NCBI GenBank assembly: GCA_003140095.1
Contig: PLIU01000506.1
Span: forward strand, 848 to 57,672
Direction of reading: 5' to 3'
DNA length: 56,825 bases
Source: Verrucomicrobiales bacterium
GTDB taxonomy: Bacteria; Verrucomicrobiota; Verrucomicrobiia; Limisphaerales; Palsa-1400
Shown piece after piece: positions 11,362 to 32,837 of the stretch. Below the pieces are notes generated by a model. That model was given only the letters and a program-made list of their open reading frames with translations. It did no database searches and was not told the DNA's origin. Position numbers and translations under genes: made by a program. Numbering within the stretch: the first letter of the stretch is position 1; the number at the start of each line of letters is the position of its first letter.

Positions 11362-11460
11362 GCATGGGAGGGGCAGGGGCGGAAAATTGGCGCTCTTTTG
11401 GCCAAACCGCGGCTCGATTTTGTGGCTTAAATATTTCCTGTTTGTCACCATTTTCTGCTT

Positions 11461-11529
11461 GCGTAGGTCAGCGCAGTACAGTTCACTGTAGGTCAGCACA
11501 GTACATACTGTAGGTCCGAGCAGTACAGT
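11461..11529. promoter_or_regulatory. Three tandem operator-like motifs GTAGGTC-N4-CAGTACA
   Basis: Copies start at 11463, 11488 and 11510; the third forms a perfect ACTGTA-N11-TACAGT dyad (11507-11529). Confidence 0.55.
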
Positions 11530-11638
11530 TTGCTGGCGCTTGTAGCTCATATTTGAAACGTGGCGACCTCGAAGTGCCACGTTTCGTCCTTGTAAAACAT
11601 AAATAAAACAAAAATAAAACACGAACAAGACACGAACC

Positions 11639-15457: not shown

Positions 15458-17281
15458 TTAAATCTTCCAATACGGCTTGGAACTGGCATCGATCTGCTCG
15501 AACAATTGGCGCACACAGGCCGGAATCTCGTCCATCGCCTCGGCGATGCGCGCGCCCAACCGGCTGTCGTACTCGCCCAGCCGGAACTGCGAAAGCAAAT
15601 CACTCAAGGCCTGCTTTTGGTCTGGCAACGTGCGCGCCGGCTCCAGCCGCGTCTCTAACTCCGCCTGCGGCAGCGTGATGGCCGGAAAGACCCGCATTAT
15701 CGCCTTGGTCTCCAGCAGGTACCCTTCCAAGTCGGGAAAATCCACCGTGATGACCTGCTCGGGCGGCAATTGCAATTGTTCCACAATCGTCCTCTTGGTC
15801 AGGCTGGCCATCTCGCTGCCGTTGCCGAAAACGGCGAAGACCAGCGTATGCACGAAGTTGCTCAACGCTATGCGCGTGTTGGCAAAATAATGCAGCGTGC
15901 AGGCCCCCTCGGCGTCCAGAAATTGAACCTTGATGTGAAAGTTGAACTTCTTGGCCCAGGCCTCGAAAATCGGCACGTGATCGGCCTGCTCCACAAACAC
16001 AATCGCGTCCGCCTCGAAGCTGAAGGATGGTTTGACCCCCAATTGCTCGATCACCTCCGGCGCCTGCTGCGGCGTGACCGTCACGGCCACGGTCGATCTG
16101 TCCACGTCTCGCTGCACGATGAACAAAGAGGAGAGCGGACAGGAAGCGGCAATGGCGGTGGAATGGGTGGCCACGTAAATCCGCTTGCCTTTGGCTTCCT
16201 CACGCAGGAAGTGGAAGAGCCCCAGTTGCGCTTTGGGATGAAGGTAGGTTTCCGGCTCCTCGATGCACACCCATGCTCCCGGTTTGGCCAGGATCACTTT
16301 GGCCACCACAGCCACCACCGACCGCGTGCCAAAACTCATTTGGCCTATCGAATAGACCAGATCTTCGTCGGCGTCGTCGATTAGTCCCAGCGTGGCCTCG
16401 TTTTGGATTGTTGGCGTGTAAAGCTTGCCCAGGTTGGGCACCAACTTGGATACCTCCGCCTCGATCTTGCGAAATTGCTTGGGCTTGTTGTTGTAGAGCC
16501 AATGCATCACGTCGGGCAGGTTGGACACGTCGGCCGTCAGCGTTTGCTCGCCCAGGATGGGCGAAGTGGTCGGCATTTTGCGCAGGGGATCGACCCATTC
16601 CAGGTTGGCGAATTGTTGATAGACCGCCTCGGCCAAAGCGTGCGAGACCGGGAACGCGCCGCTGCCTTCCGGCCGGCCCAAGCGCAAGCGGTATGGCGCG
16701 GCGGCCTCCGGCTTGGACTCCAGTTTGATCGGCTCCGCCGGCAGTTCGCCGCTGCAACGTTTGCACAGCGCCTCCATCTGGCCGCCGACCGCCTCCAGGC
16801 TGTTCGGCGTGCCGTGAACGGAAAAAATCACGAAAGGCCGGTCGCCGGCGACGTTAGGCGTAGCCAGTTCCTCGCGGAATCCATCCCGCGTGATGTCGAT
16901 CTTCAGGATCAGGGCGGAGAGGAAGCCGGAGTTGCTCACATCAGGCGCGGCCAATTGCGGATTGCCGGCGTAGAGGACGTGTATGAAATCAATCCGTTTT
17001 CTGGGAGCCGGGATGAACTCGAAGAGGAACTCGATGGTCTCATCCTCGCGCTTGCGATAGACGACCTCGCTCAACTTCTGGCCGCGGGAGGCAACAGCCT
17101 GCTCGAAGCTGGTGGCGGCTTCGGAGAGGAACTTGAAGACGTCCAGGCAATTGGATTTGCCGGCGTTATTACGGCCCATCAACAGCGCGAGGTTGTTGAG
17201 ATTATCCAACTCCAAGCGCTTGATGCTTTTATAATTACCGGCGACCACCCGCTTGAGACTGAGATCAGCAAGTTCCATCAC
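15458..17281 (-). CDS. OLD-like ABC ATPase (AAA_15/AAA_21 type) with a degenerate C-terminal TOPRIM-like domain
   Basis: N-terminal NYKSI; Walker A GRNNAGKS; signature QMSFGT; Walker B/D-loop VCIEEPETYLHP; H-loop VATHS; TOPRIM-like SFSFEADAIVFVEQADH and DLEGYL. Confidence 0.8.
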   Translation of the reverse strand: MMELADLSLKRVVAGNYKSIKRLELDNLNNLALLMGRNNAGKSNCLDVFKFLSEAATSFEQAVASRGQKLSEVVYRKREDETIEFLFEFIPAPRKRIDFIHVLYAGNPQLAAPDVSNSGFLSALILKIDITRDGFREELATPNVAGDRPFVIFSVHGTPNSLEAVGGQMEALCKRCSGELPAEPIKLESKPEAAAPYRLRLGRPEGSGAFPVSHALAEAVYQQFANLEWVDPLRKMPTTSPILGEQTLTADVSNLPDVMHWLYNNKPKQFRKIEAEVSKLVPNLGKLYTPTIQNEATLGLIDDADEDLVYSIGQMSFGTRSVVAVVAKVILAKPGAWVCIEEPETYLHPKAQLGLFHFLREEAKGKRIYVATHSTAIAASCPLSSLFIVQRDVDRSTVAVTVTPQQAPEVIEQLGVKPSFSFEADAIVFVEQADHVPIFEAWAKKFNFHIKVQFLDAEGACTLHYFANTRIALSNFVHTLVFAVFGNGSEMASLTKRTIVEQLQLPPEQVITVDFPDLEGYLLETKAIMRVFPAITLPQAELETRLEPARTLPDQKQALSDLLSQFRLGEYDSRLGARIAEAMDEIPACVRQLFEQIDASSKPYWKI

Positions 17282-17338: not shown

Positions 17339-18976
17339 CTAATCTTCATCCGTTTTTCTCATCGGCACCAAGTCGAATTGGCTGCGGTTGAATGAGTAGC
17401 CATAGAGAACCAACGCCAGAATGGAAGCTGCGGCCGTAAGCAATCCCGCCAGCGCCACGACCCACCATTTCGCCGCCATGAAAAAAGTGACGCCGGTCCC
17501 CAACATGACCAATATCAGGACAAAGCCGCGCCAGGCGAAACTGCTCTTTTGGGCGTCGTTGGTCCTGGGAGAAAACGCCGCGATCACCAACAAGGGCTGG
17601 ACCATCAACGCCACGGCGCTCCATTTCAATGCGTTCTCAATCGCCACGAAATGAATTCCAGCCGACGCCGCGTAAAGAATCAGGAGACAGAACACCACGA
17701 CAAAAGTGCTGGCGATGTTGATCTTCAAAACGACGCGCGCCAATTCCCAAAACTCAATGGGATAATTGGCGTAATACGGACTGCGCAAACCGCTCCCTGG
17801 CGGCAGATCGAAGCCGCGCGCGGTTCTGACGATGGCGGTCACACCCATCAACCCCCACAGCGGCAAAAACACCTCCGCTTTCGGAAGCCAGCCGTGTCGA
17901 AAGAGCCAAGGCACGGGCAATGCCAGCAAAAGAAACGGCGCCAGGCGTCTGAGATGAAAGGTCCAGCCCGGATTAGCGGCCAGCATGAACTCCGCAACGG
18001 TGCGGTCGCGGCCGTTGAGCAGACGTGAAAAGAGTCGTTCCAGCGAACCCGCGTTTTGCCAATCGAATCCGGCCAGGAATTGGCGGCGTTGAATCGCGGC
18101 CCGAGCCTCGTCCGGACTCTTTGCCAGGCGCTCGCCAAATTCCAGCAGTTCCGGGATGCGCCCATCGCTGGTGTGTCTCGGCTCGCTCAAAAGGAAGGCC
18201 CGGCGCACGCGCTGAAATGCAATGGGCGAAAGAGCGAGCACAACCGCGCACATCAGCCCCGGCAAGACACGATGAAGAACACCGCTCTCGTCGGAAACTC
18301 CCAAGCTCTGGAGAGTCCAGCCCAACGGCGGGACGCACCAGGCGAGGCCGTCCAGCCACGTGCATACATTTGACAGGTGCAACCCGGCGGAAAGAAGCAC
18401 CAGGGCGGCCACTTGGAACGGCAACGCCAGCGGAGCAAAGTGATCGGGCCGCGCGAATGCAACCAGGCAAACAGCCATCGCCACGATAAAAACCCACTGC
18501 ACCGCGCCAAACGCCAGCCCGCCCGTGATGGCGCGCCAACCGACCCCGGCATGGACCAGAAGCACGTAATAAGCGACCGCGAAATCAAAGAGCGGCCACC
18601 AACTGCCGCGCAGGAATCGCCTCCATTGCACGCGGAAAATGTCGCTTTCCGATATAGGCAGATAATCGAACACGATTAACCCGGGGTCATCATAAAGCCC
18701 CGTATAAAAATGACTCGCCTGATAAAACACCGTGCCCAATGTCCACAAGAGGATGACCGCCACCACGTATTCCACGGTGATGAGCTTGGAAATGACCGCC
18801 AGCATCACCAGAAATCCCATAAACAATAAACGATACACCCAGGGCGGAATGCCAGGCCTCCCTTTGGCCGCGGCGCGCGCCAGTCGATACTCCTCCCGCA
18901 ATGATGCCGACGCGAATACTTCAGCCCGCACCCGCTGGCGCGCCGCCTCCTCTAAAGACCACCGCCGCAAGCTCAC
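17339..18976 (-). CDS. Polytopic membrane protein, probable ABC exporter permease
   Basis: 545 aa with two blocks of hydrophobic helices; GTGA overlap with the upstream ABC ATPase. Confidence 0.7.
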   Translation of the reverse strand: MSLRRWSLEEAARQRVRAEVFASASLREEYRLARAAAKGRPGIPPWVYRLLFMGFLVMLAVISKLITVEYVVAVILLWTLGTVFYQASHFYTGLYDDPGLIVFDYLPISESDIFRVQWRRFLRGSWWPLFDFAVAYYVLLVHAGVGWRAITGGLAFGAVQWVFIVAMAVCLVAFARPDHFAPLALPFQVAALVLLSAGLHLSNVCTWLDGLAWCVPPLGWTLQSLGVSDESGVLHRVLPGLMCAVVLALSPIAFQRVRRAFLLSEPRHTSDGRIPELLEFGERLAKSPDEARAAIQRRQFLAGFDWQNAGSLERLFSRLLNGRDRTVAEFMLAANPGWTFHLRRLAPFLLLALPVPWLFRHGWLPKAEVFLPLWGLMGVTAIVRTARGFDLPPGSGLRSPYYANYPIEFWELARVVLKINIASTFVVVFCLLILYAASAGIHFVAIENALKWSAVALMVQPLLVIAAFSPRTNDAQKSSFAWRGFVLILVMLGTGVTFFMAAKWWVVALAGLLTAAASILALVLYGYSFNRSQFDLVPMRKTDED

Positions 18977-19710
18977 GAAACTTCCTCCTCGCGAAGTTGA
19001 CTGAAAATGTCGTCCAACCCGCTCGTCGCCGCGTGCGGATCTTTGCGCAAATCTGCCGCGGACTGATAGGCCCGGATAGCTCCGCGATGGATGACGCAGA
19101 TGCGGTCGGAAAAGCGTTCGGCCGCGTCAAGAATCTGAGTCGTGTAGAGGACCGTCTGTCCATGGGCTGCGGCCTCGTGTGCCCGGCGTTTGAAGGTATT
19201 GATGCCGTTGGGGTCCATGCCGGAGGCGAACGGTTCATCCAGCAGCCACAGCTTCGGATTCACCGCCAGCAACGCGGCCAGCGCCGCCTTGTAACGCTGC
19301 CCGCGCGACAGCGTGGCCAGCGGCACCTCGGCCAGCGGCAAGAGATCCAACTCGCGCAACAACTCCACCACGCGGTCTTCCACGCCGGGTTGGGCCAGTT
19401 CGTAGAGGCGGAGCACCATGCCGATGTGTTGCAAAGGCGTCCATTCCTCGAAGGTGGCGGGAAAATCCGGCAGAAACATAAATTGCCGGCGCAAATCCAT
19501 CCGTCCGCGCAGGAACACTTCCCCGTCATAAACGATCCGTCCTTTATCCGGCACAGCCGTTCCGGCCAGGCAGCGGAGCAGAGTTGTTTTGCCCGCGCCA
19601 TTCAGCCCCAGCAGCGCCACCACCTGCCCCGATTCAATCGTCAAGGAAACCTCGTCCAGCGCCCGGCGCGCTTTGAACTGTTTCACCACTCCTTGCAATT
19701 CGATTTTCAT
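18973..19710 (-). CDS. ABC transporter ATP-binding protein (ABC-2/drug-export type)
   Basis: GLNGAGKTT, LSRGQ, WLLDEP; the H-loop reads YTTQ instead of xSH/xTH. Confidence 0.92.
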   Translation of the reverse strand: MKIELQGVVKQFKARRALDEVSLTIESGQVVALLGLNGAGKTTLLRCLAGTAVPDKGRIVYDGEVFLRGRMDLRRQFMFLPDFPATFEEWTPLQHIGMVLRLYELAQPGVEDRVVELLRELDLLPLAEVPLATLSRGQRYKAALAALLAVNPKLWLLDEPFASGMDPNGINTFKRRAHEAAAHGQTVLYTTQILDAAERFSDRICVIHRGAIRAYQSAADLRKDPHAATSGLDDIFSQLREEEVS

Positions 19711-19792
19711 AAATTCGACAAAATTGAGCTTAACCTAAGCACATCGCTAATGATTAGCATGTCTTATTCTTAAGCCCGGCTCAAACCTCTTT

Positions 19793-20091
19793 CTGGTTTG
19801 ACTGGGTTTGACTGGTTTGACTGGGTTTGACCGGCCTGCACATTCCCCTGGCTCTTTTTGGCCACCGGCAGGCCCATTTTCGGCCACGGCAGGTTTGATT
19901 CGGTTTGATTCGGTTCGATTCGGTTTGATTTGGTTTGACTGGGTTTGACCGGCCTGCATTCCCGTGGCTCTTTTTGGCCACCGGCAGGCCCCCCATTTTC
20001 GGCCACGGCAGGTTTGATTCGGTTTGATTTGGTCTGAACCGCCTTGATTGAGGCCTGCTCTGGTTTGACTGAGTTTGACCGGGATTGACTG
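19793..20091. repeat. Array of about 17 decamers (GGTTTGAYTN) in three blocks separated by two near-identical ~60-bp spacers
   Basis: Units at 19795-19833 (4), 19892-19951 (6) and 20011-20091 (7, more degenerate). Spacer GGCCTGCA..TTCCC.TGGCTCTTTTTGGCCACCGGCAGGCCC..ATTTTCGGCCACGGCA is duplicated. Confidence 0.9.
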
Positions 20092-20380
20092 ACCGGGTCA
20101 TTCGCTCCCATAATGCGTGAAAACCACGCAATTCGCCGCGCATACGCGGCTCCGATTAAAGCACGTGCTTTGATGAACATACTTCGGCAACTCAGATCCA
20201 ATCCAAGTCCAATCGCCGGGAACCGGTCCTGCGGCATCCCGGGCGAGGCTGGATTCGCGACTGCAAATTTTCAAAGAACTGGCGCATAAGCGCCGCACAC
20301 TTGGCACATTACCACGTTATGGATGGAATGCAAAACGCATGTTGGCACCCAAATCCTTAGGCTCCGAATTTCACGGCTTG

Positions 20381-20562: not shown

Positions 20563-21879
20563 ATGAGAAAATGGCTCACACGATGCGCGGTCGCGGCAGC
20601 CTTGATTGGAACCGTGCTGCTGGCAGTCTTGCATCAACTCCAAACACCGCCCAATTCTGTGGGGCGAGCGTTGCCGCAGGGCAAAGTGAAACCGCAATTG
20701 GTCAGCGAAGAGGATACGGCTGTGCTCCTTGCACCTGACGGCTCGCTTTGGGCTTGGGGCGGAACAGGCGATGGTCTTCTGGGCGTTTTTCCGCAGCCAG
20801 AGATTTTGGAGGTTCCACGGCGAATCGGGTCAGACTCGGATTGGTCACAGGTAAGTGCCGCCTTGCAGCATACGGTTGCTCTGAAGTGCGACGGCAGTCT
20901 CTGGGCCTGGGGCACGAACCGATTTGGCGAGGCTGGCCAGGGAAATCTGACCAAGCGGAATTACGCGACACCAACGCGCATCGGCTCGGAAACCAACTGG
21001 ACTCAGATTTGCTCTGGCTTTAACCACAACCTTGCGTTGAAAAATGACGGCTCTGCATGGGCGTGGGGCCTTAATACAGACGGTGTGCTGGGAACCGGTA
21101 CGACAAATGATTCTCCTGCGCCCGCAATGGTTGGAACAAACCGGGATTGGCGGATGATCGCAGCAGAAGACTTCGCGAACTTTGCGCTCAAGAGCAATGG
21201 CACTCTTTGGGAGTGGGGATATTGCAGGAGTCGCAACAGCAACGATTTGGTGCCAAAGCCAATCGGGTATGACACGAATTGGGCGTTCATTTCGGCGAGC
21301 GGATACGCAATGGTTGCGCTCAAAAACGACGGAACCGTTTGGGTCGGAAGCGGAAACGCTTCCTCCGCCTCGGCTTGGAATTCCTCCTTCGTTATGAACA
21401 TGACGCAGATTGGTCGCGATAAAGATTGGACGGAGGTCTGCACCGGGGATTGTTCATTCTTTGGCCGCAAGAAAGACGGCAGTTGGTGGGGCTGGGGAAA
21501 CAATGATTGGCGACAACTTGGCGTCGGCACAAATGCGGAAGTCGCCGCACCGCAACGTGTACGCTTCAATTTCGAGGCTTGGGCTTTCGCGCCTGGAGTG
21601 GGTAACACCCTCGTGTTGGGCAAGGATGGCAAGTTGTGGACTTGGGGCTATCGTCTTGGAGTGAAACCCAGCGCGGCGCGGCAGAGATTCGAGGCGTTCG
21701 TTGCCCCGGCGGTGAAGCGCTTCCCGTCCCTTGGCTTCCTGGTCAAATCGGACATCGACTCTCCGCCGCACCTGCTGTGGGAGCTTCCGCCGGAAGTGCG
21801 CCGCTCGCTTGGAACCGGGCCAATTAGCCTTACGAATCATTTGACCTCCGGCCATCCAGCCGCTGCCTCCCATGAATAA
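20563..21879 (+). CDS. Membrane-anchored RCC1/BLIP-II-type beta-propeller protein, copy 1
   Basis: Basic plus hydrophobic N-terminus; seven (A/L)LKxDGSLWxWG-type repeats; conserved C-terminal PAVKRFP...KSDID...LLWELPPEVRR. Confidence 0.88.
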   Translation: MRKWLTRCAVAAALIGTVLLAVLHQLQTPPNSVGRALPQGKVKPQLVSEEDTAVLLAPDGSLWAWGGTGDGLLGVFPQPEILEVPRRIGSDSDWSQVSAALQHTVALKCDGSLWAWGTNRFGEAGQGNLTKRNYATPTRIGSETNWTQICSGFNHNLALKNDGSAWAWGLNTDGVLGTGTTNDSPAPAMVGTNRDWRMIAAEDFANFALKSNGTLWEWGYCRSRNSNDLVPKPIGYDTNWAFISASGYAMVALKNDGTVWVGSGNASSASAWNSSFVMNMTQIGRDKDWTEVCTGDCSFFGRKKDGSWWGWGNNDWRQLGVGTNAEVAAPQRVRFNFEAWAFAPGVGNTLVLGKDGKLWTWGYRLGVKPSAARQRFEAFVAPAVKRFPSLGFLVKSDIDSPPHLLWELPPEVRRSLGTGPISLTNHLTSGHPAAASHE

Positions 21880-21989
21880 CCCTCAAGTCAGCCGTTACAA
21901 TTATACGTAGCGACAGCAATGAGTTCGCTTTCCGGGTCGGGCGAACCAGCCAGCAACGGGCGGTTGTAGGCCGCGTGCCCTCACGCGGC
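21880..21989 (+). repeat. Downstream module copy 1 (hairpin plus GTAG-tagged REP), duplicated at 22592-22701
   Basis: AGCGACAG..ATGAGTTCGC...CCGGGTC.GGCGAACCAGCC.GCAACGGGCGGTTGTAGGCCGCGTGCCCTCACGCGGC is shared by both copies. Confidence 0.85.
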
Positions 21990-22013
21990 TGAGGTCACAT
22001 GCGATCGTAAATC

Positions 22014-22095
22014 TTGACAGGATGAACAGGATTTACAGGATAAAATCTTGTCGCTCACCGTTTCCGAATCCTGTTCATCCTGTTCATCCTGTCAA
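22014..22095. repeat. Long inverted repeat built from 9-nt units (ACAGGATNN)
   Basis: TTG-ACAGGATGA-ACAGGATTT-ACAGGAT, 26-nt loop, ATCCTGT-TCATCCTGT-TCATCCTGT-CAA; 28-bp arms with 2 mismatches. Confidence 0.85.
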
Positions 22096-22134
22096 AAATG
22101 CTGCTAAGAAAACAAAACTTTGTGGGATAGTAGT

Positions 22135-22187
22135 ACGGATTTCACGGCTTGGAAAGCCGCCCTTTCTTATCCGTGTCATCCGTGGTT
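22135..22187. repeat. Partial inverted repeat of 9-nt units (ACGGATNNC)
   Basis: ACGGATTTC-ACGGCT ... ATCCGT-GTCATCCGT-GGTT. Confidence 0.65.
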
Positions 22188-22227
22188 GTATAACTTCGTT
22201 TACGGTTTGTAGAATAAATCACCTGGC

Positions 22228-22591
22228 ATGAGAAAATGGCTCACACGATGTGGCGTGGCGGCAGTTTTGATTACTATCGTCCTGTTGGCGCTCACGCCCG
22301 AACGCCATCCGCCCGGTGTTTGGGTGGGCAAACCGTTGCCGCCGGGCAAGGTGAAGCCGCAGTTGGCCAATTCTTGGTCTTACCCACCACAACGCGTCCC
22401 TTTCCATTTCGATAGCTCCAGCCGTCAAACGCTTCCCATCCCTCGGCTTCCTGATCAAATCCGACATTGACTGTACTCCTCACCTCCTGTGGGAGCTTCC
22501 GCCGGAAGTGCGCCGCGCCCTTGGACCCGGGCCAAAAATCTCCACGAATAATTCAACCTCCGGCCATCCAGCCGATGCCACCCATCAATAA
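22228..22591 (+). pseudogene. Internally deleted RCC1-propeller paralog, only the conserved ends retained
   Basis: MRKWLTRCGVAAVL...GKVKPQLANSWSY is joined to PPQRVPFHFD, then in a shifted frame APAVKRFPSLGFLIKSDIDCTPHLLWELPPEVRRALG...HPADATHQ*. Confidence 0.88.
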
Positions 22592-22701
22592 ACCTGAATT
22601 CAGCAGTTGCGATTATAGGCAGCGACAGAATTGAGTTCGCCTGCCGGGTCAGGCGAACCAGCCTGCAACGGGCGGTTGTAGGCCGCGTGCCCTCACGCGG
22701 C
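22592..22701 (+). repeat. Downstream module copy 2 (hairpin plus GTAG-tagged REP)
   Basis: Hairpin GTTCGCCTG-ccgggt-CAGGCGAAC (22635-22658); GTAG-GCCGCGTG-ccct-CACGCGGC (22678-22701). Confidence 0.85.
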
Positions 22702-22881
22702 GGGGGGCCATGCGCGATTAATTGATCGTAGTACAAGGCGCACATAGATAAGAATTTATAGATTGCTTGATCGAGCATTTTGTTCCAGCACCGGTTCAAT
22801 GAACGCAGCAGTCGCCAACCTCTGAACCTGTTTTCTTTGTGGTGCAACATCCCGAATTCGCTCATTTCTGAGAAAACTTTT

Positions 22882-22968
22882 TCACCACGAAGGGCGCGAA
22901 GGACACGAAGTTTTGAAAAAGACCATATGGATGGTTCTTCTTCGTGCTCTTCGTGTCCTTCGTGGTGA
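22882..22968. repeat. Long inverted repeat built from 9-nt units (ACGAAGNNC)
   Basis: TCACC-ACGAAGGGC-GCGAAGGAC-ACGAAG, 29-nt loop, CTTCGT-GCTCTTCGT-GTCCTTCGT-GGTGA. Confidence 0.85.
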
Positions 22969-23054
22969 GAATTGGCTTGCGGCTCGTCTGCGTTGTGCTC
23001 TTTGTCTTCTTTTGTGGCCACTGCAAATGCTTTTTGTAGGTTAAATCACCCGGC

Positions 23055-24314
23055 ATGAGAAAATGGCTCACACGCTGCGCGGTGGCGGCAGGCTTGATTC
23101 TGTTGGTGCTGCTGCTCGCGGTGCATCAACTTAATGGGCCTGGAATTTGGAACGGCCATCCATTGCCGCCGGGCAAAGTGAAGCCACAGTTGGTTAATGA
23201 TCGGTTGTGCGCGATCCTCCTGGCTCCGGACGGTTCGCTTTGGGCTTGGGGTGGAACGCCGCAATGGAACTTTCCCGTAAGCTCGCGCCCGCAAGATGTT
23301 ACCTTCTCGGAGGTGCCGCGACGCATCGGGTCAGATTCGAATTGGAGGCAAGTGGCTTTTTGCCAGGACCTCACACTTGCTCTGAAGGACGACGGCAGTC
23401 TGTGGGCTTGGCACTTTAACCAACTGTACGGCGCTCCAACCCGGATCGGCACGGAAACTAACTGGAGCCAACTCTGCGCCGCCGATGGGAACAATTTGGC
23501 GTTGAAAAATGACGGTTCACTTTGGACCTGGCCATCGGATAGCTCGGCTCCGGCCATGGTCGGCACAGACCGGGATTGGCGGACGATCGCAGTGGTTGGC
23601 GCCGCCAGCCTCGCCCTCAAGAGCTATGGCACACTCTGGGGCTGGGGAAGGTTCGATGGCAGCAATTATCGGGTTCCCCGGCCAATCGCGGCAGGCACTA
23701 ATTGGCTGGCCATCTCGGCCAACGGCTCCTTCATACTTGCCCTCAAAACCGATGGAACACTTTGGACGAGCGGCAGTAACGTTTCTCGTGTTCCTTCACT
23801 CCCGTTTACCGGTCTAAGCACAAACTTCATCCAACTCGGACCGGACAAGGATTGGGCCGAGATCTTTGCCGGGGAAGATTGCTCCTTCTTTGCGCTGAAG
23901 AAAGACGGCAGTTGGTGGGGTTGCGGGCAGAACCTCTTCGGGCAACTCGGCCTGGGCACAAATATCACGGCCGTGGCCTCACCGCAACGCCTGCCCTTCG
24001 AACTCAATCCTTGGGCCTTCGCGCCGGGAGTGCAAGCCACCCTTTGTTTGGGTAAGGATGGCAAGTTGTGGACTTGGGGCAAGCGCTTGGGCTTGGGCCA
24101 ACCGAGCGCGAAGCGGCTGAGATTCGAGGCGTTCGTCGCCCCGGCGGTCAATCGCTTCCCGACCCTAGGCTTCCTGATCAAATCGGACATCGACTATGCG
24201 CCGCACCTGCTGTGGGAACTTCCGCCGGAAGTACGCCGCGCGCTTGGAACCGGGTCAAAAGACTCCACGAATATTTCGACCACCGCCCATCCAGCAGGTG
24301 CCTCCCATGAATAA
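23055..24314 (+). CDS. Membrane-anchored RCC1/BLIP-II-type beta-propeller protein, copy 2
   Basis: Same architecture as copy 1, with shortened loops after blades 2 and 3. Confidence 0.88.
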   Translation: MRKWLTRCAVAAGLILLVLLLAVHQLNGPGIWNGHPLPPGKVKPQLVNDRLCAILLAPDGSLWAWGGTPQWNFPVSSRPQDVTFSEVPRRIGSDSNWRQVAFCQDLTLALKDDGSLWAWHFNQLYGAPTRIGTETNWSQLCAADGNNLALKNDGSLWTWPSDSSAPAMVGTDRDWRTIAVVGAASLALKSYGTLWGWGRFDGSNYRVPRPIAAGTNWLAISANGSFILALKTDGTLWTSGSNVSRVPSLPFTGLSTNFIQLGPDKDWAEIFAGEDCSFFALKKDGSWWGCGQNLFGQLGLGTNITAVASPQRLPFELNPWAFAPGVQATLCLGKDGKLWTWGKRLGLGQPSAKRLRFEAFVAPAVNRFPTLGFLIKSDIDYAPHLLWELPPEVRRALGTGSKDSTNISTTAHPAGASHE

Positions 24315-25689
24315 ATCGCCCGGCATTAAAAAATGGCGCACACGATGCGCAATTGCGGCGGCCTTGATTCTTATCGTGCTGCTGGTGTTCGAGCATCAAC
24401 TCCATGCACCCGGCATTCGGATGGGCAAACCGTTGCCTCAAGGCAAAGTGCGGCCGCAATTAGTCAACGCTGGAGATATCGCTTTGCTTCTGGCTCCCGA
24501 TGGGTCGCTCTGGGCTTGGGGCGGAACGCAATCCAAACTGGCTTGGAACGGAACGGGCTCAAGACTTATGGGCGTGTTCCCTCAGCCATCTATCTCGGAG
24601 GTTCCTCTCCGCGTCGGCGCAGACTCGGATTGGACCCAGGTAGCTTCAGGCGGCTCATATACGGTGGCGCTTAAAAGCGATGGCAGCCTTTGGGCCTGGG
24701 GTTGGAACGGCGAAGGAGAAGTTGGCCAGGCGAACCTCACCAATCACTACGGCGCTCCAACTCGTATCGGCAGGGAAACCAACTGGACCCAGATTTGCGC
24801 CGGCGTTGCTCACACGGTGGCCTTAAAAATTGACGGTTCGCTCTGGGCCTGGGGCTTCAATAACCGCGGCCAATTAGGAGACGGCACGACCAACAACATT
24901 TCCGTTCCGAGTATGATCGGCGTAGATCGGGATTGGCAAGCGATCGCGGCGCACGTTAACAACACCTTGGCCCTCAAGAGAAACGGCACCATCTGGCGCT
25001 GGGGGTCACAAAGCAACAGTGGCAATGAATTATTGACGCCAACACAAATGGAACCTGGCACGAATTGGCAGGCCATTTCAGCCTACGATTTTAACCTGCT
25101 GGCGCTCAAAACCGATGGAACGCTTTGGCTAAGCAGTATGCTCGTTGGTGCAGGGGTTTACATTAACGCCGCTTCGGCGTTCGCCTCCGGTCACACTGAT
25201 AACTTCACCCAGGTCGGACGCGATCAGGATTGGATTGAAATTCATGCCGGTTGGATTTCGTTCTTTGCCCGCAAGAATGATGGCAGTTGGTGGGGCTGCG
25301 GCCTGAATTACGAGGGACAGCTTGGCTTGGGCACGCATGTTTTGTGTGCGCCCTCCCCCCGGCGCCTGCCATTCAGCTTCGAGCCTTGGGTCTTCGCGCC
25401 GGGACAAGGCACCACTCTGTTGTTGGGCCTTGATGGCAAATTGTGGACTTGGGGAAGGCGGCTGGGGCTAAGCGGACCGAGCGCGACGCGGCAGAAATTC
25501 GAGGCGTTCTTGGCCCCGGCGGTCAAGCGGTTCCCCGCATTTCGCTTCCTGATCAAATCGGACATTGACCAAACGCCGCACCTCCTATGGGAGCTTCCGC
25601 CGGAAGTGCGCCGTTCGCTCGGAACCGGGCCGAATGGCTCCACGAATGATCCGACCACCGCCCATCCAGCAGGTCCCTCCCATGAATAA
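24307..25689 (+). CDS. Membrane-anchored RCC1/BLIP-II-type beta-propeller protein, copy 3
   Basis: Starts at the ATG inside CATGAATAA of copy 2 (MNKSPGIKKWRTRC); the family's second ATG is ATT here. Confidence 0.88.
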   Translation: MNKSPGIKKWRTRCAIAAALILIVLLVFEHQLHAPGIRMGKPLPQGKVRPQLVNAGDIALLLAPDGSLWAWGGTQSKLAWNGTGSRLMGVFPQPSISEVPLRVGADSDWTQVASGGSYTVALKSDGSLWAWGWNGEGEVGQANLTNHYGAPTRIGRETNWTQICAGVAHTVALKIDGSLWAWGFNNRGQLGDGTTNNISVPSMIGVDRDWQAIAAHVNNTLALKRNGTIWRWGSQSNSGNELLTPTQMEPGTNWQAISAYDFNLLALKTDGTLWLSSMLVGAGVYINAASAFASGHTDNFTQVGRDQDWIEIHAGWISFFARKNDGSWWGCGLNYEGQLGLGTHVLCAPSPRRLPFSFEPWVFAPGQGTTLLLGLDGKLWTWGRRLGLSGPSATRQKFEAFLAPAVKRFPAFRFLIKSDIDQTPHLLWELPPEVRRSLGTGPNGSTNDPTTAHPAGPSHE

Positions 25690-27016
25690 ATCGCCCGGCA
25701 TGAAAAAATGGCTCACCCGATGCGCAATTGCGGCGATCTTGATTCTTATCGTGCTGCTGGTGTTCGAGCATCAACTCCATGCTCCAGGTTTTTCGGTCGG
25801 CAGACCGTTGCCGCCGGGCAAAGTGCGACCGCAATTGGTCACCGACTGGGAGACGGCTGTCCTTCTGGCCCCCGACGGATCACTCTGGGCTTGGGGCGGG
25901 ACAGAATTTCACCTTACGAACGTATTCCCGCATCCCGTCACCTCGCAGGTTCCACTTCGCATCGGCTCGGACTCGGATTGGTCGCAAGTAGCTGGTGGCA
26001 CGATGAATACATTGGCATTAAAGGATGATGGCAGCCTGTGGGCCTGGGGTAGGGAGGGCCTGGGACGATCTGGCCCGGCAAACCTCACCCATCACGACGG
26101 CACTCCAACCCGCATCGGCACGGAAACGAACTGGGCTCTAATCTGCTCCGGATTTGCTCACTATCTGGCGTTAAAAAATGACGGCTCGCTCTGGGCTTGT
26201 GGGGACAATGGCCAAGGCCAACTAGGCGACGGCTCGACCAGAATTATGTCGGTTCTGACAATGATCGGCACAGCCCGGGATTGGCGGGCGATCGCAGCGG
26301 GCAGCTTCGACAGCTTCGCGCTAAAAAGCAACGGCACTCTCTGGGGCTGGGGGAAAGGCCACATCAGCAATGATTTAACCCCCAGGCAGATTGACTCCGG
26401 CACGAATTGGCTGTCCATTTCGGCATGCCTTAACACGCTCATGGCGCGCAAAACCGATGGAACTCTTTGGCTAAAAAGCCCAAACGCGATGGTTATTGCT
26501 TCGGCTTTCGTTCACGGTCCCACTGAAGACTTGACACAGATTGGAAAGGATAGAGATTGGACTCAAGTCTATGCCGGGTTTAATTCGTTCTTCGCCCGCA
26601 AGAAAGACGGCAGTTGGTGGGTCTGCGGCTTGAATTACGAGGGACAGATTGGTCTCGGCCCAAATATCACCGCAGTGCCATCACCGCAACGCTTCCCCTT
26701 CGACTTCGATCCTTGGGCCTTCGCACCCGGCGGTCAAACCACCATTTTGCTGGGCATAGATGGCAAGTTGTGGACTTGGGGCAAGCGCTTGGGGGCGGGC
26801 CAACCGAGCGCGGCGCGGCTGAAAATCCAGGCCTTCCTGGCCGCGATGGTGAAACGCTTCCCGTCCCTTGGCTTCCTGATCAAATCGGACATCGACCAAA
26901 CACCGCATCTCCTATGGGAGCTTCCCCCGGAAGTGCGCCGCGCGCTTGGAACCGGGCCAAAAAGCGCTACAAATAATTCGACTTTAGGGCAACCAACCGA
27001 TGCCTCGCATGAATAA
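25682..27016 (+). CDS. Membrane-anchored RCC1/BLIP-II-type beta-propeller protein, copy 4
   Basis: MNKSPGMKKWLTRC start overlapping the copy 3 stop; seven RCC1-type repeats. Confidence 0.88.
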   Translation: MNKSPGMKKWLTRCAIAAILILIVLLVFEHQLHAPGFSVGRPLPPGKVRPQLVTDWETAVLLAPDGSLWAWGGTEFHLTNVFPHPVTSQVPLRIGSDSDWSQVAGGTMNTLALKDDGSLWAWGREGLGRSGPANLTHHDGTPTRIGTETNWALICSGFAHYLALKNDGSLWACGDNGQGQLGDGSTRIMSVLTMIGTARDWRAIAAGSFDSFALKSNGTLWGWGKGHISNDLTPRQIDSGTNWLSISACLNTLMARKTDGTLWLKSPNAMVIASAFVHGPTEDLTQIGKDRDWTQVYAGFNSFFARKKDGSWWVCGLNYEGQIGLGPNITAVPSPQRFPFDFDPWAFAPGGQTTILLGIDGKLWTWGKRLGAGQPSAARLKIQAFLAAMVKRFPSLGFLIKSDIDQTPHLLWELPPEVRRALGTGPKSATNNSTLGQPTDASHE

Positions 27017-28316
27017 ATCGCCCGGCATGAAAGAATGGCTCACACGATGCGCGGCGGCGGCAGCCTTGATCGGTATCGTGCTGCTGGCGGCGACGCATCC
27101 ACGCCATCCGCCGGGGATTTGGATGGGCCAACCGTTGCCTTCGGGCAAAGTGAAGCCGCAACTCGTCAGCGCCTGGTTGTATGAGACGCTCCTGGCTCCC
27201 GACGGGTCGCTTTGGGCTTGGGGCGGGTCGGAGCAATCCCCCTTACCCTCAAACTGGTTCCCGCAAGATGCGATGTTGCAGATTCCACACCGCATCGGGT
27301 CGGATTCGAATTGGACGCAGGTGGCGTGTTGCCAGGATTACCAAGTCGCTTTGAAAAACGACGGCAGTCTGTGGACTTGGGTTTTTAACCAATCTGGACC
27401 CACTCCAACCCGGATCGGTACAGATGCCAATTGGAGCCAAATCTGCGCCGGCGGTGGGCACAATCTAACGTTGAAAAACGACGGTTCATTGTGGACCTGG
27501 GACTCGAACGAGCGCGTCACACTAAACGACGGGACGACCACCAACAGGCCCGTTCCAACCATGGTCGGCACAGACCGGGATTGGCGGTCGATCGCCGCAG
27601 GTCTTCGGAACAGCTTCGCGCTCAAAAACAACGGCACCCTTTGGGAATGGGGAACACAAGGCGCCGCCAGCAACGATTTGACGCCAAGGCAAATCTCACC
27701 TGATACGAATTGGCAGGCCATTTCGGCCGACCGTTTTTGCCTATTGGCGCTTAAAACCGATGGAACACTTTGGGCAACGAATAGCAGCGTGACTCGTATT
27801 GCTAAGGCCTTCGTTCCCAATCTCACTGGAAACTTCACCCAGATCGGACCGGACACGGATTGGACCGAAGTCTATGCCGGAATGAATTCGTTTTATGCCC
27901 GCAAGAAAGACGGCGCTTGGTGGGTCTGCGGGGTGAACCATTTCGGACAACTTGGCCTGGGCACAAATATTTTCGCAGTGCCCTCGCCGCAACGACTGCC
28001 TTTCGACTTCGATCCTTGGGCCTTCGCGCCGGCAGAAGGTACCGCCCTTATGTTGGGCAAAGATGGCAAGTTGTGGACTTGGGGTTTGCGCCAGGGCGGC
28101 CAACCGAGCGCGGCGCGGCAGAAATTCGAGGCGTTCTTGGCCCCGGCGGTCAAGCGGTTCCCCGCACTTCGCTTCCTGATCAAATCGGACATCGACCAAA
28201 CACCGCACTTCCTGTGGGAGCTTCCAGCGGAAGTTCGCCGTTCGCTCGGAACCGGGCCAAATGGCGCCACGAATAATTTGACCGCGGGCCATTCTGCCAA
28301 TACTCTTCATCCATAG
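27009..28316 (+). CDS. Membrane-anchored RCC1/BLIP-II-type beta-propeller protein, copy 5
   Basis: MNKSPGMKEWLTRC start overlapping the copy 4 stop; seven repeats; divergent last codons (NTLHP*). Confidence 0.88.
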   Translation: MNKSPGMKEWLTRCAAAAALIGIVLLAATHPRHPPGIWMGQPLPSGKVKPQLVSAWLYETLLAPDGSLWAWGGSEQSPLPSNWFPQDAMLQIPHRIGSDSNWTQVACCQDYQVALKNDGSLWTWVFNQSGPTPTRIGTDANWSQICAGGGHNLTLKNDGSLWTWDSNERVTLNDGTTTNRPVPTMVGTDRDWRSIAAGLRNSFALKNNGTLWEWGTQGAASNDLTPRQISPDTNWQAISADRFCLLALKTDGTLWATNSSVTRIAKAFVPNLTGNFTQIGPDTDWTEVYAGMNSFYARKKDGAWWVCGVNHFGQLGLGTNIFAVPSPQRLPFDFDPWAFAPAEGTALMLGKDGKLWTWGLRQGGQPSAARQKFEAFLAPAVKRFPALRFLIKSDIDQTPHFLWELPAEVRRSLGTGPNGATNNLTAGHSANTLHP

Positions 28317-28380: not shown

Positions 28381-29586
28381 ATGAAAAAACGCATCTTGTT
28401 TGTCGGCGAGGACCAGGCTCTTTGCCAGGAATTCCAGGCGCACTGCCCTGGGCCGGAGAGCGTTTGGACCGTCCAACACGTCCAAACCGAAGAAGAAGCG
28501 CTGGCCTTGTGCCAGCAGCAGACCATCGCCGTCGTCGTGGCCGACGTCAATCTCAATGGCAAAAGCGGCACCGATTTGCTCGACGCTTTCATGCGCCGCC
28601 AGCCCAAGGCCTTGCGCATCATCATTTCAGACCTGGCCGACGTGGCCAGCACAATGAAGTGCATCGGCCACGCCCATCACCACGTCTTGAAGCCGTGCAG
28701 CGCGCAGACTCTTCTCCAGGCCCTCGACCAGGCCTTCGCTCAGGAAGCCTGGCTGCCCAGCGAACCGGTGCAAGGCTTCATCGCCCAGATGCGCCAGGTC
28801 CCCAGCCCGATCAAGGCCTACCAGCAGATTGTCCAGGAAATGAAGTCGCCGACCTGCTCCCTGGAGAAAATCGGCAACCTGGTCGCGAAAGACCCGGCTG
28901 TCGCGGCCAAGGTCCTGCAACTGGCCAACTCGACCGTATTCGGACGGGAATTGAAAGTAGTCAACCCGGCCGAAGCCATCGGCTACATCGGCCTGGAAAC
29001 CACCAAGGCGGTCGTCCTGCTGGCCCACACCTTCTCCTCGTTCGACAACCTCAAGCTGGCCCGTTTCTCCATCGAAGACCTTTGGCGGCACTCGGTGGCC
29101 GTCGGCCGCATGGCGCAGCGCGTGGTGGTGTTGGAAAAGGCCGGGGAGGACCTCGCCGAACAGGCCTTTGCCGCCGGGTTGCTGCACGACATTGGGAAGC
29201 TGCTCTTTGCGGCCAACCACTCGGGCCTTTTCGGCAAGGTCCTGCGGCTGGCGCGCGAACAACAGTGCAACTTGTGGGAAGCCGAGTCGCAAATTTTGCC
29301 CGGCGTCGGCCATGCCGAATTAGGCGCGACGGTTTTAGGGATTTGGGGATTGCCCAAGTCGATTACCGAGGCCGTGGCGTTGCATCATTGCCCGTGGCGG
29401 CAGCGCCACCACACTTTCAGCCCGGTCACGGCGGTCCATGTGGCCAACATTTTGGACCATGAAAACCATCTCGACCCCGCCATCATCATGCCCTCGCAGA
29501 TCAATACTTCCTATCTCAAGGACATGGGTTTGGCCGGGCGCGAGGAGGACTGGCGTCAAGGCTGCGTGGGGATGGATCGGCAGTGA
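28381..29586 (+). CDS. Response regulator with REC and HDOD domains
   Basis: MKKRILFVGED...VVVADVNLNGKSG...LKPC (REC); DPAVAAKVLQLANS, LWRHS, AGLLHDIGKL, GHAELGA..L..WGLP, HH (HDOD). Confidence 0.9.
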   Translation: MKKRILFVGEDQALCQEFQAHCPGPESVWTVQHVQTEEEALALCQQQTIAVVVADVNLNGKSGTDLLDAFMRRQPKALRIIISDLADVASTMKCIGHAHHHVLKPCSAQTLLQALDQAFAQEAWLPSEPVQGFIAQMRQVPSPIKAYQQIVQEMKSPTCSLEKIGNLVAKDPAVAAKVLQLANSTVFGRELKVVNPAEAIGYIGLETTKAVVLLAHTFSSFDNLKLARFSIEDLWRHSVAVGRMAQRVVVLEKAGEDLAEQAFAAGLLHDIGKLLFAANHSGLFGKVLRLAREQQCNLWEAESQILPGVGHAELGATVLGIWGLPKSITEAVALHHCPWRQRHHTFSPVTAVHVANILDHENHLDPAIIMPSQINTSYLKDMGLAGREEDWRQGCVGMDRQ

Positions 29587-30740
29587 TGAGGATGCACGCC
29601 CTCCGGCTCTCCTTGATCTTCTGGCTGCGACGATTCCCGAGGCTGCATCGCGTTACACGTCGCATCTCCCAGCGCATCCGCGACCTCGTCCTTGGCCTGC
29701 TGCGCCAAATGATCCCGGCCACCGTCCCTTGGGGACCGCCCAAAGGATTCTTTTCCGACTACGAGCTGCTCCGAAACGCAAAAGTGGATGGCAAAGTGTT
29801 GTTGGAATCGCAAGATGTTCCAACTGCCGCGGCGGACAGCCTCCGCGAAAAATCCGGCCTTAAACAAACTCATAATCAACCTTGGCCGATCTTCTGGACC
29901 CTCCATCCCCAAGGCCGCCTCATCGCCAAGTCGCTTGTTTTGCTTGACAAGCAAAAACGCCTATCGCGGGAAGGAGCGTTCGGCCCGGCTGCCAAAACGG
30001 ATCCCGCCTATGGCAACATCTTCCTTCCGCCTCCCACTCGACTCCATGGCAATTGGACCAGTATCAAAAGCCAATGGGAGGAGGGGTTTTGCCACTGGTT
30101 TCTGGACGGATTGCCCCGTCTGGCCATATTACCCGAACTGCCGCTCAACACGCGCATCATCGTTCCGTCCCGGTTGGCGCCCTATCAACAACAAACTTTG
30201 CAGTGGCTCGGTCTGGCGGATCGCATCAGGCCGACCGAGGAAAAACATCTTCTCATCGAGCACTATTACTTTTGCTCGCTGACCTCGATGACAGGATGTT
30301 ACAATCCCTTCGCCGTGCAATTCCTGCGGCGATCATTCCTGCCTCACGCTAAGCTGGAGTATGAACCGCCACCCCGATTTTATGTGCGGCGCGTTGGCAA
30401 ATCCCGGCCTATAGACAACGAGCATGAGGTTCTTGATTTCTTTCGGAAAAGAGGCTGGGCGATCATCGACACCGAACAACTCCCACTGGGCATACAAATC
30501 CGCCTTTTTTCCCAGGCCGAAATGATCTGCGCCCCGCACGGCGCCGGGCTGACCAATCTTCTCTGGTCCCCGCCCGGCTGCAAGGTGCTCGAATTGTGCG
30601 CCAGCACTTACCTCAATGGAATATATGAAGGCCTCGCCGAATGCCTGGCCTTGCAGTATCGCTACTTGATTTTCGAAGGCGACAACACCTTTCGATCTCG
30701 CATCAATCTGGAAGAGTTGGAACGCGCCCTGGAATTCTAG
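29583..30740 (+). CDS. Glycosyltransferase family 61 (DUF563) protein
   Basis: FCHWFLDGLPRL, RFYVRR...RPIDNE, QIRLFSQAEMICAPHGAGLTNLLW...VLEL. Confidence 0.85.
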   Translation: MMRMHALRLSLIFWLRRFPRLHRVTRRISQRIRDLVLGLLRQMIPATVPWGPPKGFFSDYELLRNAKVDGKVLLESQDVPTAAADSLREKSGLKQTHNQPWPIFWTLHPQGRLIAKSLVLLDKQKRLSREGAFGPAAKTDPAYGNIFLPPPTRLHGNWTSIKSQWEEGFCHWFLDGLPRLAILPELPLNTRIIVPSRLAPYQQQTLQWLGLADRIRPTEEKHLLIEHYYFCSLTSMTGCYNPFAVQFLRRSFLPHAKLEYEPPPRFYVRRVGKSRPIDNEHEVLDFFRKRGWAIIDTEQLPLGIQIRLFSQAEMICAPHGAGLTNLLWSPPGCKVLELCASTYLNGIYEGLAECLALQYRYLIFEGDNTFRSRINLEELERALEF

Positions 30741-30806
30741 TTATCGAAACGGTGTTCCTCCCTTGAAAAACCGCTTGCCCTTAATTCGGCTATTGGAGAA
30801 CATCCG

Positions 30807-31715
30807 TTGGTTATGGTTTCTGGCTTGCTCGTCGGCTTTTATCGCGTGGTTCATGGCCGTTTGCATCTGCCGGGCGCCGGGTGGTTGCTCCGAAGGCTTG
30901 CCCCGATCGTCCCGCGTCTGCAAGCGTATCCGTTCCTCGTGCCGGAGGTGGGAGTAGCCTTGCTCGATTTTCGCGAAATCGAAGCCTTTGGCTTGGTCAA
31001 TCTCGTGCTTGGCGATCTGCGGAACGATGCGAACTTGCATCGATGCCTGGAAATGGCGCTCCAACCAGGAGACGTGTTTTGGGACGTGGGAGCCAACGTC
31101 GGCGTGGTCTCGGGACACTTCGCTCATCCGCGCTTCCAACTTTCCAGCCTGCACGCCTTTGAACCCAACCCCATTCCATTGAAAACCCTCCAATCTTTGT
31201 TCTCGGCCAATGCGCGCTGCATCGTGCATCCGTTTGGTCTGGGGGACAAAGACCAGATGATCAACATGAACCTTTCCTCCGCTGGCAGCAGCTTGGGATC
31301 CATGTCGCGCGATTTCCAGGAGGGCAAACAAATTCGGGTCCAGGTTCGCCGCGGCGATGCCGTACGCCGCGAATTGGGTTTGCCGGCTCCCCACGTCATG
31401 AAAATTGACGTCGAGGGATTTGAACCCAGCGTGTTTGCCGGCTTGACGGAAACCATCGCCGAGCACCGTCCCATCCTTTTCTTCGAGCATCTCTTCTTGT
31501 CCGATCAGCAGATCAGGGAACTGATGCCGAAGGACTACGTCCTCTTTTTTATCCAGGACGACGGCTCGACCACAACCGATTTTTCCGAGCGGCGCAAAGG
31601 GCATGATGTCATTGTTATCCCGGCAGAGAAAGCGGCACGACTCAACTTGGCGCCAACCGTGCCAGCCCGGAACCGCGCCGCCGATGGAGCAGGGCGGCGG
31701 GTTCAGAAAACTTAA
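30807..31715 (+). CDS. FkbM family methyltransferase
   Basis: VFWDVGANVG, HAFEPNP, MKIDVEGFE. Confidence 0.9.
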   Translation: MVMVSGLLVGFYRVVHGRLHLPGAGWLLRRLAPIVPRLQAYPFLVPEVGVALLDFREIEAFGLVNLVLGDLRNDANLHRCLEMALQPGDVFWDVGANVGVVSGHFAHPRFQLSSLHAFEPNPIPLKTLQSLFSANARCIVHPFGLGDKDQMINMNLSSAGSSLGSMSRDFQEGKQIRVQVRRGDAVRRELGLPAPHVMKIDVEGFEPSVFAGLTETIAEHRPILFFEHLFLSDQQIRELMPKDYVLFFIQDDGSTTTDFSERRKGHDVIVIPAEKAARLNLAPTVPARNRAADGAGRRVQKT

Positions 31716-31988
31716 TCCGAGGCGCATGCCAAAGGCGCGGCCTGCAAGACGGGTAGCCAGCAGGACGGTCGGAGCGCAGAAAGATGCAGAATACACTTGC
31801 GCTTCCACTTCCCATCCCCTAAGAAGTCGCTCGAAGTGCGGCGGTTAGCACGGATCGGCGACAGGCGCGCCAAGTTACCGCCATTGGGACAGCGGAAGGC
31901 GTGCCTTCCTCCGCAAAAGCCAATGGCGGCAGCTTCGTGAGGTCTGCTGTGCCTTCCTGCGCCACGCGCCGCCCTTCTTAATGTATTC

Positions 31989-32810: not shown

Positions 32811-32837
32811 TCGCAGAGGCCAGCCAGCAAGCGCCCC

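Follow-up and report, generated by a model that had tools for sequence, protein, structure and literature searches.

We describe a tandem array of genes for RCC1-type propellers in the genome of a peat-soil verrucomicrobium, and find support for a fast-evolving repertoire of exported binders. The array lies at positions 20563-28316 (+ strand) of a 56,825-nucleotide stretch, here called the window, of contig PLIU01000506.1 from the Verrucomicrobiales bacterium assembly GCA_003140095.1. Its products combine a membrane anchor with a conserved seven-bladed scaffold on which one face diversifies. From this we infer an immunity or inhibitor role. Our best guess is that the proteins neutralize foreign proteins in the periplasm and are not a housekeeping part of the envelope, a reading to which we give a probability of about 0.4.

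Array layout and propeller fold

Five long open reading frames (ORFs) and one short ORF lie head to tail in the array. ORF listing and alignment confirm that these are five intact paralogs and one relic, as a first-pass annotation made from the sequence alone had stated. According to its ORF, Pfam matches and alignment, the first gene, g1 (20563-21879, 438 amino acids, aa), encodes a membrane helix followed by an RCC1 propeller of seven blades and a C-terminal block (C-block) that is conserved. The other four intact genes, all on the + strand, are each 59 to 63% identical to g1. They are g2 (23055-24314, 419 aa), which lacks two D-A hairpins; g3 (24307-25689, 460 aa; P0006); g4 (25682-27016, 444 aa), whose structural model begins at 25700; and g5 (27009-28316, 435 aa; P0030), whose 3′ tail is found as a scar piece in the congener G004. 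The lengths of g3, g4 and g5 are counted from a start that reads MNKSPG. The N-terminal anchor motif and the C-block are shared as annotated, with g3 reading WRTRC where the others read WLTRC. The relic (22228-22591, + strand) retains about 51 N-terminal codons, after which internal deletions have removed the propeller and the C-block follows in a second frame. No Pfam match was found in it.

The junctions among g2, g3, g4 and g5 are identical in kind (...CATGAATAAATCGCCCGGCATGA...). At each, given the MNKSPG start, an ATG overlaps the upstream stop by 8 nt (ATGAATAA). This overlapping ATG is the likely start of g3, because the inner ATG of that gene has mutated to ATT. Repeat-rich spacers of 350 to 460 bp with palindromic elements follow g1 (21880-22227) and the relic (22592-23054), and therefore only g2 to g5 are coupled. 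The annotated coupling of the array thus holds for these four genes and not for g1 and the relic, which are set apart. From their sequences, the two spacer palindromes look like REP or MITE hairpins. The one at 22014-22095 has 28-nt arms (22014-22041 and 22068-22095) that are 93% complementary, and the one at 22879-22971 has 32-nt arms (22879-22910 and 22940-22971) that are 84% complementary. The end of g1 together with the first ~115 nt of its spacer (21703-21994) recurs at 84% identity as the last part of the relic and the spacer sequence after it (22415-22706). A promoter and terminator scan came out at chance (4 versus 3.1 expected, and 13 versus 13.0), and Rfam at its gathering threshold returned nothing in the window.

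All five intact genes match the Pfam families RCC1, RCC1_2 and WD40_RLD. Scores exceed the PF13540 cut-off (22 bits) in all five genes, at 45 to 93 bits, the PF00415 cut-off (21.7 bits) in four of five (g2 scores 20.3), and the PF25390 cut-off (150 bits) in two of five. NCBIfam has no family for any of the five, and a search of the ESM Atlas returned generic RCC1 clusters only. The AlphaFold2 model of g4, built on a 59-row family alignment, is a seven-bladed propeller with seven four-stranded blades and at least 27 strands (predicted local distance difference test, pLDDT, 87.9; predicted template-modeling score, pTM, 0.84). The g2 model forms the same propeller (pLDDT 88.5) despite its two missing hairpins. 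A Foldseek search with the g4 model placed UVR8 first (E = 3.5 × 10−25, template-modeling scores 0.66/0.78), followed by RCC1, RPGR and HERC1/2. The RCC1 propeller named in the annotation is thus borne out by profile matches, models and structural search alike.

In the g4 model, a membrane helix (residues 2-26) leads through a conserved 18-residue linker (27-44) to the blades (45-362). These are followed by two C-terminal helices (371-386 and 388-393), a long velcro strand (398-407) and a short helix (410-415), beyond which the tail is disordered. The strand count assigns to blade 1 the C-terminal strand (IDQTPHLLWE) and three N-terminal strands (45-49, 52-56 and 62-66). Because the C-terminal strand pairs with the N-terminal ones in this blade, the "constant ends" together make up the closing blade, one half each. 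The closing strand (PHLLWELP) comes after the helical hairpin, and the P-H-x-x-W-E-L-P-x-E-V motif is conserved in protein even among members that are only 35 to 44% identical. A copy on another contig of the source genome, C95 (L092:5283-6509), lacks the C-terminal hairpin but has the velcro strand (…IDQTPFLLWELLPEVRRSLIQ), so that ring closure apparently does not need the hairpin.

The N-terminus consists of three basic residues and then 25 hydrophobic residues, and reads as a signal anchor. The start of a distant family member, L019, looks in our reading like a classical signal peptide. These two features would place the propeller outside the cytoplasm, with predicted export leaving it tethered to the inner membrane on the outer side. 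Complex prediction for a homodimer of the g4 ectodomain gave no support, and no verdict either way.

Variable face, gene conversion and turnover

Variability is concentrated on one face of the propeller. We assigned residue classes from the DSSP string of the g4 model and calculated Shannon entropy over 68 family sequences. Entropy was highest in the B-C loops (3.01) and the D-A loops (2.34), compared with 1.18 in the A-B loops, 0.56 in the C-D loops and 0.93 to 1.39 in the strands. The two faces differ sharply (2.46 for B-C and D-A loops together versus 0.89 for A-B and C-D loops; Mann-Whitney, P = 5 × 10−16). B-C and D-A loops make up the "top" face with which propellers usually bind their ligands. 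The hypervariable B-C turns align with the canonical RCC1 'G..H' turn, whose His is mostly lost, and this same turn is the one that we take to carry the GWRHT interface residues of UVR8.

Substitution rates follow the same pattern. Among the five paralogs, the ratio of nonsynonymous to synonymous differences (pN/pS) was 0.94 in B-C loops, 0.71 in D-A loops, 0.41 in A-B loops, 0.17 in C-D loops and 0.33 to 0.39 in strands. We also estimated omega by maximum likelihood (ML) under a GY codon model with fixed topology, using 16 coding sequences (the five window genes and eleven others). Omega ranged from 2.1 (F1X4) to 3.1 (F3X4) in B-C loops, and was 0.50 to 0.58 in D-A loops, 0.21 in A-B and C-D loops pooled, and 0.27 to 0.3 in strands. 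A likelihood ratio test (LRT) of the 18 B-C codons against omega = 1 gave 2ΔlnL of 14.4 and 20.5 (P = 1.5 × 10−4 and 5.8 × 10−6). With branch lengths linked across partitions, the B-C likelihood profile peaked at an omega of 2 to 3 (2ΔlnL = 20.4, P = 6 × 10−6). Neutral simulations with omega = 1 and the same tree, length and saturation never reached the observed values (0 of 60; maxima, omega 1.58 and LRT 9.94). Together, the entropies and codon analyses show purifying selection on the scaffold (strands, A-B loops and C-D loops), hypervariable B-C and D-A loops, and an omega above 1 in the B-C turns. The divergent core described in the annotation is accordingly narrowed to those two loop classes; the remainder of the core is conserved.

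The gene ends behave differently from the cores. Nei-Gojobori counts of synonymous differences (pS), averaged over ten paralog pairs, were 0.55 in the core versus 0.39 in the first 50 codons and 0.26 in the C-block. Third-position identity rises from about 0.45 to 0.60 in the core to 0.72 to 0.79 at the 3′ end. The most extreme case is g3 versus g5, with 96% nucleotide identity over codons 372-401 and 68% in the cores. C-block identity averages 0.785 within the array; against at least 58 foreign family members it is 0.647, with no more than 2 to 3 of these above the within-array mean; core identity is 0.59 within the array versus 0.575 to other genomes. Thus, the junction (C-block, tail and next N-terminus) evolves in concert and the cores do not. 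Gene conversion, as read from these identities, homogenizes the gene junctions, and both it and structural constraint contribute to the constancy of the C-block. The constant ends noted in the annotation are thus no cassette frame but a closing blade that is also homogenized by conversion.

The array itself is unstable over short evolutionary distances. The five paralogs do not group together in a tree of 87 family proteins. There, the sister of g1 is the metagenome protein P0040 (support 99) and that of g5 is a second metagenome protein (support 97); g2 branches with the g5 clade (support 98), and g3 and g4 fall within an unresolved radiation. The copies thus represent old lineages, which other organisms share. 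Two anchors delimit the site. On the left is an AAA_15/AAA_21 ATPase of 607 aa (15458-17281, − strand), present in all four congeners at 72 to 89% identity. On the right is a response regulator with an HDOD domain (RR-HDOD; 28381-29586, + strand), 81 to 84% identical in three of the four congeners searched; G002 has only distant paralogs of it. Between the anchors, the source genome has an ABC operon, dispersed repeats, and the five genes with their relic, and G003 has one full-length and one shortened family copy. In G004, only about 120 to 165 bp separate them. This interval includes a 41-nt stretch identical to the 3′ tail of g5 at 34 of 41 positions, with a match score of 27 compared with a maximum of 15 in 200 shuffles. 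We regard this stretch as a deletion scar, and hence the array as lost in G004. No family member was found in either G004 (93% complete) or G001 (95% complete), so that the family cannot have an essential housekeeping role in this genus. We also found no housekeeping role for the family in print. Neither outcome that the annotation named as refuting its reading was therefore seen, since gene content differs among relatives. Across species of this genus, the array expands, degenerates into relics and is lost. The diversifying character proposed in the annotation therefore stands, given old paralogs, relics, B-C omega above 1, and copy numbers of zero (the scar), two, and five plus a relic at one site.

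Dispersed repeats accompany this site. An intergenic repeat upstream of the array (19780-20250), with GGTTTGA(C/T)T(G/C)-type 10-mers and tandem sub-repeats, has 83 matches across the source genome, many near contig ends. Its summed contig depth in four RNA libraries is several-fold higher than in its flanks (24 to 102 versus mostly 0 to 15).

The family is narrow. The source genome (a 7.8-Mb assembly of 515 contigs, 89% complete) has 13 C-block matches, array and relics included. Outside the array it holds three full-length copies (contigs C199, C314 and C95), one split copy (C200) and fragments (C301, C393 and C198). Downstream of the C314 copy, in the same orientation, are a GFO/IDH/MocA oxidoreductase gene and a second RR-HDOD gene (L091:1718-6272). 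The C-block occurs in 4 of 31 genomes of the same GTDB family (13, 3, 1 and 1 matches). A sample of 301 genomes from across the class yielded 2 with it, one of which is a weak match. The motif is present at ten loci among 185,579 species genomes; the record titles of eight name Verrucomicrobiota or a subgroup of it, and those of two name other phyla. A C-block profile (A4) found 25 cluster representatives among 1.84 billion proteins. Most of these are family-sized or short fragments, as judged by length and match position alone, and two, 975 and 300 aa long, are matched in numerous short segments. We had considered the C-block as a portable C-terminal module, and dropped this idea. Metagenome records from JGI, ENA and Logan hold numerous protein homologs at 50 to 66% identity, and the RNA-library contigs that match the array are labeled as peat or permafrost metagenome. 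Tandem pairs were found elsewhere in G003, L098 and L104, and metagenome contigs of 12104, 8384 and 62424 bases hold two to three family copies.

Function, neighborhood and rival explanations

Each gene product consists of a short basic N-terminus, one membrane helix, the conserved linker and the seven-bladed RCC1 propeller. The propeller would be exported and remain tethered to the inner membrane, facing outward. Because it has no enzymatic or signaling domain, it probably acts by stoichiometric binding through its variable face, and the array would therefore be a repertoire of binders with different specificities. In the manner of immunity proteins or inhibitors, these binders may capture or neutralize foreign proteins that enter the periplasm. 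We would rank foreign periplasm-acting proteins first as targets, a guess that draws on the inner-membrane tether, the lack of an output domain, the arms-race signature and the accessory distribution. A more specific form of this idea seems unlikely to us. It holds that the array is a germline-encoded poly-immunity or surveillance set of the periplasm, in which each positively selected top face neutralizes a different competitor toxin or lytic enzyme, birth and death renew the set, and conversion keeps its frame recombinable.

Several observations weigh against a repertoire of exported, neutralizing binders. ORFs called and clustered over 29 family loci (353 kb) revealed no partner gene that recurs. 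PADLOC (PADLOC-DB 2.0) assigned 0 families to the g4 propeller. Co-occurrence of the family with type VI secretion systems (T6SSs) is not significant: the marker VipB is present in 6 and the C-block in 4 of the 31 family genomes, with both in 2, the propeller only in 2, the T6SS only in 4 and neither in 23 (Fisher test, P = 0.16). Charge counts are similar on the two sides of the membrane helix, and topology is read from sequence alone. All five genes are matched by contigs from four RNA libraries, in some cases with 0 differences. Library X1 covers all 30 bins, whereas X2, X3 and X5 leave some bins uncovered, from which nothing follows. The contigs span genes and spacers alike; DNA carry-over is possible, so they are not evidence of transcription. 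As for selection, the counting method puts pN/pS in the B-C loops at 0.94, which is not above 1, and the B-C class was picked after the entropy profile had been seen. Divergence is also near saturation (~35 substitutions per codon over the tree), and the paralogs recombine, yet were analyzed on a single tree. For the immunity or decoy function proposed in the annotation we found no direct evidence.

The neighborhood offers several candidates, few of which recur. Neighbors of just three kinds recur across the 29 loci: generic ABC ATPases in 5, RR-HDOD in 3, of which two are syntenic, and pseudopilin-like genes in 3. None of the Pfam matches of neighbors, in the window and around the source-genome copies, is a toxin, in agreement with the annotation, which saw no cognate toxin in the window. 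The left-anchor ATPase matches the PADLOC models HEC-01A, GajA, Old and ATPase-Toprim; it is conserved here in all four congeners and may mark a defence-island-like hotspot. Between this ATPase and the array, in the source genome only, an ABC ATPase gene overlaps stop to start with a gene for a polytopic membrane protein of 545 aa without a Pfam family (17339-19710, − strand). We dropped a link to this operon: its ATPase is no closer than the generic 30% level to one near L019, and no kinship links the two membrane proteins (E = 0.35). Farther left are two very large ORFs (7954-15019), one of 1069 aa with a LamG-like domain and one of 1126 aa without a clear family. To the right of RR-HDOD, positions 29583-34136 hold genes for a GT61 glycosyltransferase, an FkbM methyltransferase and a Wzm/Wzt ABC-2 exporter. 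FkbM, Wzm and Wzt are common to G003, where GT61 is replaced, and none of them adjoins RR-HDOD in G004 or G001. Elsewhere in the source genome, contig C393 (L094, L182 and L183) carries a T6SS cluster at about 21000-48800, with TssC over its Pfam cut-off, VgrG, ClpV and TssM by ORF reading, and a PG_binding_1 protein downstream of VgrG with a masked (N) stretch beside it. An RCC1-family relic (16068-16391) adjoins PEPCK on this contig, 4.6 kb beyond the end of the cluster. We did not take the T6SS as support, given the co-occurrence P value of 0.16 and the position of this relic outside the cluster.

The glycan genes raise a different possibility, which we consider rather improbable. The proteins could be ligand or glycan binders tied to a variable cell-surface polysaccharide locus. 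At the inner membrane they would recognize glycans, whether self or environmental, and would vary as those glycans vary. The array does lie 1.3 kb upstream of the GT61, FkbM and Wzm/Wzt genes; G003, with two copies, has FkbM, Wzm and Wzt at the same place, whereas the copy-free G004 and G001 lack them beside RR-HDOD. A fucosidase and a GT2 gene also flank the C199 copy. However, the link is seen in two related genomes only and kinship could explain it, RR-HDOD separates the array from the glycan genes, and Pfam and NCBIfam scans of the array genes detected no carbohydrate-binding family. Other family loci have no such cluster, and generic ABC ATPases are the only genes of it that recur (5 of 29 loci). 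Less likely again is a redundant paralog expansion under relaxed constraint, with exposed loops that drift, unequal crossing-over at a repeat-rich hotspot and no repertoire function. Truncated copies and relics are frequent, the array is flanked by dispersed repeats, and both the counting pN/pS of 0.94 in B-C loops and the overall core omega (0.25 to 0.41) fit this account. It sits poorly with an ML omega of 2 to 3 in those loops, where omega = 1 is rejected and none of the 60 neutral simulations reaches the observed value. Five long ORFs have moreover stayed intact at a dS around 1, the scaffold is under purifying selection, and the paralog lineages are common to other genomes.

The two other alternatives concern phages and signaling. 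An inner-membrane factor that blocks phage genome entry, or is used for it, could engage in an arms race within a defence-island-like hotspot. In keeping with this, the left neighbor is an OLD/Gabija/HEC-01-like ATPase, the site varies between congeners, and generic RCC1 propellers are common on viral contigs. We nevertheless think a phage role quite improbable, as PADLOC returned no family for the propeller, the family C-terminal motif occurs in 0 of 80 viral loci, and the ATPase neighbor is confined to a syntenic pair of loci. The same 80 loci, which hold generic RCC1 proteins of at most 39% identity, led us to reject a viral origin. Least probable of all is that the propellers are periplasmic co-sensors feeding the adjacent RR-HDOD. 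This regulator lies downstream on the same strand in two of the eight family loci of the source genome, for which the chance of at least two is about 0.003, an estimate that rests on 11 full-length HDOD matches of 13 in that genome. But no histidine kinase or cytoplasmic domain is apparent from Pfam or the AlphaFold2 model, other species have no RR-HDOD next to family members except at the syntenic G003 locus, and RR-HDOD in G004 and G001 has no RCC1-family copy within the 10 kb examined.

What we describe is a narrow subfamily of peat and permafrost Verrucomicrobiota, with a conserved scaffold, one diversifying face, old paralogs side by side, conversion at the junctions, and gain, decay and loss among congeners. 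Signatures such as these usually mark molecules that face a changing partner. Should the partners be competitor toxins or lytic enzymes, this would be a new fold and a new architecture, with no linked toxin, for bacterial immunity. Under the poly-immunity version, it would be the first full beta-propeller immunity family, uncoupled from a cognate toxin gene. Should they be glycans, the family would represent periplasmic lectins of a new class. Either way, the variable B-C turns point to precise positions for mutation.

Comparison with known systems

The fold is known, and as far as could be found, the subfamily, its closing motif and its evolutionary behavior are undescribed. A literature search returned no title or abstract describing a membrane-anchored RCC1 family or array in Verrucomicrobiota, consistent with the annotation, which knew of no described system of this form. 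RCC1 propellers are established binding scaffolds, but to our knowledge their bacterial roles are mostly undefined outside a few effectors and BLIP-II. The array proteins share the seven-bladed propeller of the RCC1-like domains of UVR8, HERC1/2, RCC1 and RPGR (Foldseek E = 3.5 × 10−25 to 1 × 10−17; UVR8 profile match, E = 4.6 × 10−55). Unlike these, they are bacterial and have a membrane helix, a C-terminal helical hairpin and a velcro strand (PH.LWELP.EV), and their genes are multicopy with fast turnover. The PH.LWELP.EV motif occurs in 0 of 136 generic RCC1 loci and, as in the viral comparison above, in none of the 80 viral loci.

BLIP-II (beta-lactamase inhibitor protein II) of Streptomyces, which the annotation had offered as a comparison, is an exported bacterial RCC1-type propeller (Foldseek E = 1.5 × 10−13). 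Structurally it stands further from the array proteins than UVR8, HERC or RCC1 do (TMq 0.41 to 0.43, root-mean-square deviation ~7 Å, Foldseek ranks 46 to 48). It is also shorter, at ~270 residues in solved chains, and is absent from the PDB sequence matches at E ≤ 1 × 10−5. BLIP-II is presumably soluble, without an anchor or C-block, and we saw no beta-lactamase link for the array. It works purely by binding through one face, and the array proteins may do the same.

Known roles of bacterial RCC1 proteins, according to a 2023 preprint (10.1101/2023.11.21.568195), include Legionella effectors and a Yersinia toxin-complex propeller. According to PMC3391265 and PMC10933484, Tsi1, X-Tfi (XAC2610) and PliI are periplasmic, all-beta partial propellers that neutralize peptidoglycan hydrolases, whether incoming or the cell's own. 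As described there, these are small, partial and effector-adjacent, whereas the array proteins have the full RCC1 fold, a membrane tether and no effector neighbor. Zhang et al. 2012 (PMC3482391) report that no beta-propellers had turned up among polymorphic-toxin immunity proteins.

Among the hallmarks of toxin-immunity systems, the array family has a copy number and presence that vary between strains, and across the 29 family loci it has no adjacent cognate toxin. Tandem or orphan immunity arrays, such as PA5086-5088 for PldB and the acquired interbacterial defence clusters of Bacteroidales, have a known toxin partner and other folds. The array resembles them in architecture only, as a row of several paralogous binders, here predicted to be exported, that varies in copy number.

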